From IMG/VR virus record IMGVR_UViG_640753025_000003: a stretch of DNA of 16,140 nt, one strand, 5' to 3'. Positions 11,547 to 12,108 of this stretch are shown one piece after another. The stretch is from a virus. Its lineage: Duplodnaviria; Heunggongvirae; Uroviricota; Caudoviricetes. A program made the position numbers and the translations under genes. Under the pieces are notes generated by a model. That model saw only the letters and a program-made list of their open reading frames with translations. It was not told the origin of the DNA and did not search any database. Each line of letters starts with the position of its first letter. The first letter of the stretch is position 1.

Positions 11547-11725
11547 AAGCAACTCCATCTGGCAGGTGAAAATCAGGTTTATTTATATATTTCAATTAAT
11601 TGCAAACTAGTCTAATGACAGGGAGAAAAAAATATTGTACAGCTGAAAAGAGAAATAACTTTTAATTATCAATAAATTACCAAACATGCTGCCGCCGCCA
11701 TGGAAATGCAAAAACTAGCCTTTTT

Positions 11726-11745
11726 CCGCGACGCTCCCGCCCCGT
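11726..11745. other. Candidate cos site (cosN-like GC-rich core) upstream of the terminase small subunit gene
   Basis: Minus-strand sequence ACGGGGCGGGAGCGTCGCGG resembles the lambda cos end ACGGGGCGGCGACCTCGCGGG (shared ACGGGGCGG and TCGCGG). It lies about 190 nt upstream of the nohA start, the same spacing as cosN to Nu1 in lambda. An adjacent GC-rich imperfect palindrome GGGACCCCCACTGGGAGGACCC (11750-11771) sits in an otherwise AT-rich region. Confidence 0.35.
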
Positions 11746-12108
11746 GGCAGGGACCCCCACTGGGAGGACCCGACAGCCTGACAACCGTGACGAGCATCTG
11801 AAACAGAGCTTTACATAATGGCATGGGGATAATTCAGAAGGACATCACAGCATGCCCACACAAATTAGTGTGAGTGTCCTGTTTCTTACTACGCGCAGGA
11901 CTGACGAGCATGAGGGGAAAATACGAGAACCGAAATGCCTTATCTTCAGAAATGCAGCCGGCATCCGAACTGGACGATATTGTAAATTCACCTAAATACG
12001 AGGCATTGCTGTAGTTGAATTGCATTGCTGTATTAGCCTGACAGTGACAGAATACGATATTGACTCTGTCACTTGTGAAATGGTCAGAATGGTTAGCAGT
12101 TATGGTGA

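Follow-up and report, generated by a model that had tools for sequence, protein, structure and literature searches.

The GC-rich element upstream of the small terminase (TerS) gene in the window, i.e. the whole 16,140-nt stretch of DNA that was analysed, represents, with a probability of about 0.9, a cohesive-end (cos) site as in the lambdoid phages cdtI, Tritos and HannyBb, kept in a defective Qin-like prophage. The cos site is real and ordinary, a known kind of element with a known allele. It holds little new biology. Lambda-type cos sites have been well described, as has the natural variability in the right half of cosN, and two deposited phage genomes already have this exact allele at their ends. 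Its practical value is for annotation, since a widespread group of lambdoid prophages has its true left end at this site.

The phage late genes are located on the minus strand, so the element has to be read on the same strand, in the direction of packaging (Table 1). In this direction the sequence is ...ctgtcGGGTCCTcccagtgggggtccctgccaCG/GGGCGGGAGCGT/CGCGGaaaaaggctagtttttgcatttccatggcggcggcagcatg..., with slashes at the predicted nicks, and the cohesive end (the complement of GGGCGGGAGCGT is ACGCTCCCGCCC) stands in the frame CCACG/GGGCGGGAGCGT/CGCGG. The predicted minus-strand nick is between 11743 and 11742 and the plus-strand one between 11731 and 11730, and CG precedes each of them on its own strand. 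The 7-mer GGGTCCT is known as the cosQ of lambda (Wieczorek & Feiss 2001). A first-pass annotation had reported a cos-like element at the lambda-equivalent position, and this has stood: the strings are present, ACGGGGCGGGAGCGTCGCGG being the reverse complement of 11726-11745 and GGGACCCCCACTGGGAGGACCC lying on the plus strand at 11751-11772, and the 12-mer with its flanks corresponds to the record ends of phages cdtI and Tritos. The GC-rich island in AT-rich DNA that it described is seen in a GC fraction of 0.74 over 11726-11790, against 0.32 in the cosB region (11559-11725) and 0.475 in the whole window. The distance to the TerS start, given as about 190 nt as in lambda, is 184 nt from the first base of the 12-mer (11742) to the first in-frame ATG (11558) and 196 nt to the ATG used by RefSeq and by the Tritos record (11546), and the corresponding figure for Nu1 of lambda is 191.

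Table 1. Features of the cos region and of the surrounding prophage, with positions in the window. Offsets are counted from the left end.
Feature	Position	Strand	Sequence	Remarks
ydfJ	1-1284	-		
pinQ, serine invertase	2618-3208	+		
Tail fibre	3480-7256	-		1258 aa, Peptidase_S74 chaperone domain
lom	7321-7920	-		
J tail-tip remnant	7988-10633	-		Without N-terminus
gpA-family large terminase remnant	10633-11010	-		About 127 codons; GpA_ATPase, E = 1.9e-26
TerS, Pfam DUF1441	11019-11558	-		Intact; Pfam E = 1.7e-44; probable true start 11546
Distal cosB (putative)	11559-11649	-		Conserved blocks, the last abutting the TerS ribosome-binding site
Distal cosB block	11572-11559	-	TTTTCACCTGCCAG	Adjoins the TerS ribosome-binding site
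Distal cosB block	11623-11610	-	CCCTGTCATTAGAC	
Distal cosB block	11649-11640	-	TTTTCAGCTG	
IHF consensus	11667-11679	+	WATCAANNNNTTR (TATCAATAAATTA)	+64 to +76; exact consensus match
R3-position element	11685-11702	-	CATGGCGGCGGCAGCATG	+41 to +58; candidate primary TerS binding site
I2-like segment	11709-11730	-	CGCGGAAAAAGGCTAGTTTTTG	A tract and T tract, between cosN and cosB; conserved in relatives
cosN, cohesive-end sequence	11731-11742	-	GGGCGGGAGCGT	12 nt; same as the start of the cdtI and Tritos records
Spacer from cosQ to the top-strand nick	11743-11764	-		22 nt, ends in CCACG; holds GGGTCCC
cosQ	11765-11771	-	GGGTCCT	Packaging-termination signal; same 7-mer as at lambda 48473-48479

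TerS is 100% identical to the protein in three phage records, namely cdtI (AB285204, counted once together with its RefSeq copy NC_009514), Tritos (OV696610) and HannyBb (PP925841), the last of which is 99% identical to the window across 701 nt including the site. The records of cdtI and Tritos open with GGGCGGGAGCGTCGCGGAAAAAGG, which begins with the 12-mer, and close with ...GGGTCCT(22 nt)...CCACG. The starts and ends of the records match the predicted nicks, indicating that the depositors put the linear ends at the position of a lambda-type staggered cut, and it may be that lambda served as the model for these boundaries. Tritos, a siphovirus produced by strain LF82, forms plaques and virions, and its paper does not describe the genome ends (PMC9928086). 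Searches of the full-text literature with the 12-mer matched only an unrelated paper, and those with GGGTCCT and cosQ together gave nothing relevant. Within the DUF1441 TerS family, the 5' cohesive ends of phage Cr-LKS3 have been determined experimentally and begin with GGGC after CG (PMC9303873), and the 12-nt 5' cohesive site of phage LLS was deduced by the authors together with M. Feiss (PMC12315714). A scan of IMG/VR for contigs terminating at cos found none, as most contigs that matched come from prophage regions in the genomes of isolates. The record of mEp460_4F5 (LR595868.1) is broken 5 nt before the predicted nick, and its cosN lacks two bases (TC) present in all relatives; its ends were rejected as evidence since they are probably an assembly artefact at the cohesive ends.

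Alignment with known cos sites, which the first-pass annotation had proposed as a check, shows the element to be of the lambda type. Lambda has GGGTCCT-23 nt-/GGGCGGCGACCT/CGCGGG, and the 12-mer of the window is identical to it at 8 of 12 positions, with all of positions 1-6 shared and differences at 7, 8, 9 and 11. The cosQ is identical in 7 of 7 bases, CG is found at both nicks and CGCGG follows the end, whereas the distance from cosQ to the nick is 22 nt here and 23 nt in lambda. Both have the order cosQ, cosN, I2, cosB, TerS and TerL with a TerL of the gpA family, and both have an IHF-type site about 65-75 nt from the left end. The I2 of lambda is AT-rich with dA and dT tracts and occupies about bp 18-50 (PMC4856287). 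The cosB sequences, on the other hand, are unrelated, and the small subunit is a DUF1441 protein and not Nu1 or NohA as in lambda and the Qin prophage of K-12; TerS shows no significant sequence similarity to Nu1 (BLASTP E = 4.6). Since TerS and cosB differ from those of lambda, the packaging specificity is expected to differ as well. The non-Nu1 TerS alters this expected specificity, not the membership among lambda-like cos sites, which are defined by the cohesive ends. In lambda-like phages positions 7-12 of cosN often vary with no measurable effect on cutting, while cosQ, at 7 bp, is conserved together with the left half of cosN and the CG pair at each nick (PMC4669245), and all of these conserved features are present here.

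Among other known sites, phi80 has the same 12-mer as lambda, N15 shows GGGCGGCGTCCG around cosN, and the cos of HK97 is unrelated. A closer match to the cohesive end than in lambda is found in the Salmonella phage Gifsy-1, which belongs to the lambda-like set of Feiss and colleagues and has GGGTCCT-23 nt-/GGGCGGCAGCGT/CGCAGG. Its end is identical to the 12-mer of the window at 11 of 12 positions, only position 7 being different, and it likewise has GGGTCCT upstream and CG before the nick. Gifsy-1 differs in having a Nu1-type TerS, lambda-like I2 and cosB sequences (CGCAGGATTTCACTCC...) and the 23-nt spacing. LLS/mEp213, Fels-1, VT1-Sakai and the Providencia phage PSTCR8lys encode a TerS of the DUF1441 family as here, and their sites have the same frame, with a cosQ-like motif, CCACG, a 12-mer starting with GGG and CGCGG(A/G)AA(A/C)NGGC..TTTT; the LLS record annotates its 12-nt 5' cohesive site in this frame. 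[quoted passage not shown]

In cosB, the sequence at the R3 position co-varies with the helix-turn-helix (HTH) sequence of TerS across about 60 loci. A TerS with HRDTVKKRL is accompanied by GGCGGCAGCA at +41 to +58, NRGTVKKRL by GTCAGCAGCA, DRK(A/S)V(K/R)RRL by GACACCACCA and HRQTV.. by CATCATCATCA, and GCTGTCAGCAGCA is the Providencia-type version of the element. From this co-variation, the element would be the main TerS binding site. It is a triplet run of the CAN-CAN-CA type in which the variable bases shift with the TerS HTH, and it offers a testable candidate recognition site or code for the uncharacterised DUF1441 small terminases. The exact IHF consensus has three matches in the 16-kb window against 0.87 expected, one of them in cosB, and this site is kept in cdtI and Tritos; a role for it is suggested by analogy with I1 of lambda. 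The distal blocks are kept in TerS relatives that are at least 75% identical, and the conserved blocks, with repeats of the TTTTCACCTG type, reach the ribosome-binding site. Known cosBs either contain R3, R2 and R1, in the complex type, or a single R3 as in N15, and a search of cosB for the lambda-style R3-I1-R2-R1 triple repeat gave only weak similarities of the CTG(N)CA type. The sites within cosB are putative and are drawn solely from conservation and co-variation.

The AlphaFold model of TerS (AF2, mean pLDDT 80.8) has a strand, a helix-turn-helix and a beta-hairpin wing followed by long helices, so the N-terminal domain is predicted to be a winged HTH, a Nu1-like kind of domain, with long helices after it. 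In Foldseek the N-domain matched MerR-like winged-HTH binders and a small-terminase DNA-binding domain with probabilities of 0.9-0.99 and non-significant E-values, and among viral proteins TerS has its best fold matches in small terminases (E between 1.5e-8 and 2.3e-5). In PDB, sequence and profile searches with TerS gave only insignificant HTH matches, the best one to a MarR-family protein (E = 0.059).

By extension from lambda, the DUF1441 TerS should bind cosB by its winged HTH, chiefly at +41 to +58, probably assisted by IHF bending the DNA at +64 to +76. TerS bound at cosB would place the gpA-family large terminase over cosN, and the enzyme would then nick the two strands 12 bp apart, after the CG of CCACG/G and of CCGCG/A, to give 5' overhangs of GGGCGGGAGCGT. 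The DNA would subsequently be packaged in the direction of TerS until the next cos is reached, where the cosQ GGGTCCT, 22 nt upstream, would let the enzyme stop and cut.

The first-pass annotation had left it open if the element is a decayed or a variant cos, and a relic changed beyond use by its cognate terminase could be expected in a defective prophage, where selection on cos should be relaxed. Two substitutions relative to Tritos, HannyBb and cdtI are private to the window, at 11643 and 11609, both within distal cosB blocks that are common to the relatives; on the packaging strand 11643 is G here and C in the phages, and 11609 is T here and C in the phages. These changes may be early erosion under relaxed selection. 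However, cosQ, the length of the spacer, cosN, I2, the R3-position element and the IHF consensus are 100% identical to those of Tritos and HannyBb, which are viable phages, the intact TerS has the same sequence as the phage protein, and in lambda the distal R1 site has an accessory role only (PMC4669245). A core that matches viable phages indicates a variant that is intact, apart from slight distal erosion at the most, so the variant half of the earlier suggestion is upheld and the decayed half is quite unlikely. In addition, cdtI shows three further single-base differences, at 11709, 11689 and 11681, and a few bases of the spacer between cosQ and cosN differ between the window and the three phages.

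The first-pass annotation had also noted an imperfect palindrome just beyond the element. The palindrome is present at the place of GGGACCCCCACTGGGAGGACCC, and it consists of cosQ itself (AGGACCC on the plus strand, GGGTCCT on the minus strand) with a second arm, GGGTCCC, located 15 nt beyond it. This dyad (GGGTCCTCC..GGGGGTCCC) could suggest a terminator or an RNA structure rather than a DNA site, and a small protein-coding gene might be considered as well, as two ORFs on the minus strand, 11669-11824 and 11834-12025, overlap the region and are given as hypothetical proteins in the automated annotation of HannyBb. Both ORFs are, however, without Pfam match, and other records annotate different ORFs there or ORFs on the opposite strand, while RefSeq annotates none. 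The second arm of the palindrome is not conserved: among prophages with identical cosN it is most commonly GGTGGCC, with GGGCCCC and others also found, and it varies freely without compensating changes. Rfam has no family matching the region. Either a gene or a hairpin is for these reasons very unlikely. The whole spacer behaves in the same way as the second arm, with 28 distinct sequences of constant length in IMG/VR loci with identical cosN, and the cosQ 7-mer is near-invariant in 120 such loci. A covariation of the dyad with the cosQ type across the family was considered and rejected, as it was inconsistent.

The distribution of the site was studied in 90 loci, comprising TerS relatives with one genome per species together with loci from six phage and metagenome searches and four phage loci. 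The frame was taken as a cosQ-like motif, about 22 nt, CCACG or CACCGAG, the 12-mer, CGCGG and the A/T-tract segment, and it was found 100-250 nt upstream of a DUF1441 TerS in 63 of the 90 loci, from many Gammaproteobacteria. CGCGG...GGC...TTTT was the search anchor, which makes its own conservation circular. In the unselected columns of the 61 distinct sequences, GGG is found at +1 to +3 in 87%, -2 to -1 is CG in 69% and AG in 20%, and a cosQ-like motif is present in 93%. The I2-like segment is nearly invariant in loci where TerS is 61-100% identical. In E. coli, a 106-nt core of the site is present in 2102 of 5426 complete genomes (about 39%), with a median of one place per genome and a maximum of seven, and 2392 of the 2395 places are chromosomal. 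The element stands in prophage context beside terminase genes. A homologous element is thus found in related phages and prophages with the same TerS family, and the common intergenic repeat that the first-pass annotation had named as a possible refutation does not agree with the median of one copy per carrying genome.

That the element is a chance resemblance or a generic dispersed repeat without packaging role is scarcely credible, even if the region is short and GC-rich, with G/C runs that are easily matched by eye, and carries no RefSeq annotation over the cos element, for 200 dinucleotide-preserving shuffles contained no instance of the composite pattern GGGTCCT-N18-26-CGGGGCGG-N6-CGCGG, which the window has once, Rfam has no match, and the copy number together with the conserved position upstream of the same gene family across bacterial orders excludes a dispersed repeat of the REP, BIME or ERIC kind. 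The cosN-only pattern gave no further exact match elsewhere in the window.

Some variation in cosQ and in the nick context was seen among the DUF1441 TerS loci (L008-L103). Here cosQ is GGGTCC(T), or GGTACTCC in about half of them, the context of the left nick is CCACG or CACCGAG, and the 12-mers vary widely after GGG. Natural variation of cosQ has been described as not apparent (PMC4669245); in contrast, there appears to be some within the DUF1441 family, as judged from these loci. One locus, in a contig labelled as a metagenome-assembled genome of Veillonella parvula (L014, JAGZPX010000007.1), has the same cos and a TerS that is 99% identical to that of E. coli, and this contig almost certainly derives from an Escherichia prophage and has been mis-binned.

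Among IMG/VR prophages (L111-L230), at least three different cosB/TerS modules are found attached to the exact cosQ-cosN-I2 block, mEp460_ev081 likewise has the block with a different cosB/TerS module, and many of the E. coli matches stop at about 11703-11709. The boundary between I2 and cosB appears, from these alignments, to be a recombination joint between packaging modules.

The window is 100% identical in E. coli HS and many other strains, and by RefSeq annotation and Pfam scans it is a Qin-like cryptic prophage adjoining ydfJ. On the other side of the cos region are found a hypothetical gene, gnsB, ynfN, cspI and lysis genes. RefSeq marks both the large terminase and the J genes as incomplete pseudogenes, and the GpA_ATPase match spans profile positions 2-87 of 247 only. 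The remnant of the large terminase abuts J at the junction 10627-10633, and a single deletion took all head genes and most of the tail genes. Intact cognate large terminase and head genes are absent from the element, unlike cdtI, Tritos and HannyBb, where both are complete. The site is consequently orphaned, because the large terminase gene breaks off after about 127 codons, where it is fused to what remains of a tail gene, and without large terminase and head genes in cis it is usable only in trans and not by its own prophage. Cutting in trans would require a phage with the same specificity, either co-resident or infecting.

That cos and the intact, phage-identical TerS have been retained because they are still used in this way is unlikely. 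If it is the case, a phage of the Tritos/HannyBb/cdtI type, co-resident or infecting, would supply the large terminase, and packaging would proceed from 11742 toward pinQ, ydfJ and the adjacent chromosome, as a cos-directed, doc-particle-like or lateral mobilisation; alternatively the enzyme would be drawn away from the DNA of the phage itself, and the remnant would be a packaging decoy that lowers the yield of the helper. Recurrent cos-TerS remnants in which everything up to the tail-fibre genes has been lost, such as nohA-stfQ in the Qin prophage of K-12 and the TerS-J and TerS-tail-fibre fusion proteins, would then reflect selection and not accident. The protein database contains numerous TerS fragments from E. 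coli that carry the J C-terminus, tail-fibre domains or ClpP domains as fusions (P0094, P0098, P0109, P0112), which suggests recurrent deletions starting just after cos-TerS.

The Qin prophage of K-12 (NC_000913.3, 1631000-1645000) has at the same ydfJ-side locus a cosQ-cosN identical to that of lambda (5380-5600 of the segment), followed by nohA, a homologue of Nu1. With a lambda-type cos and NohA in K-12 and a cdtI-type cos and DUF1441 TerS here, the Qin locus holds different packaging modules in different strains. At the ydfJ end of the window, a truncated tail-fibre assembly gene and the tail-fibre gene (3296-7256) adjoin pinQ, and a 2025 paper reportedly links PinQ-driven inversion in Qin to blocked adsorption of phage T2 (PMC12529663). 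Beyond the cos region, 13398-13814 on the minus strand contains a full-length match to the cspA thermoregulator RNA (RF01766, 109.8 bits), located 5' of the prophage cold-shock gene cspI.
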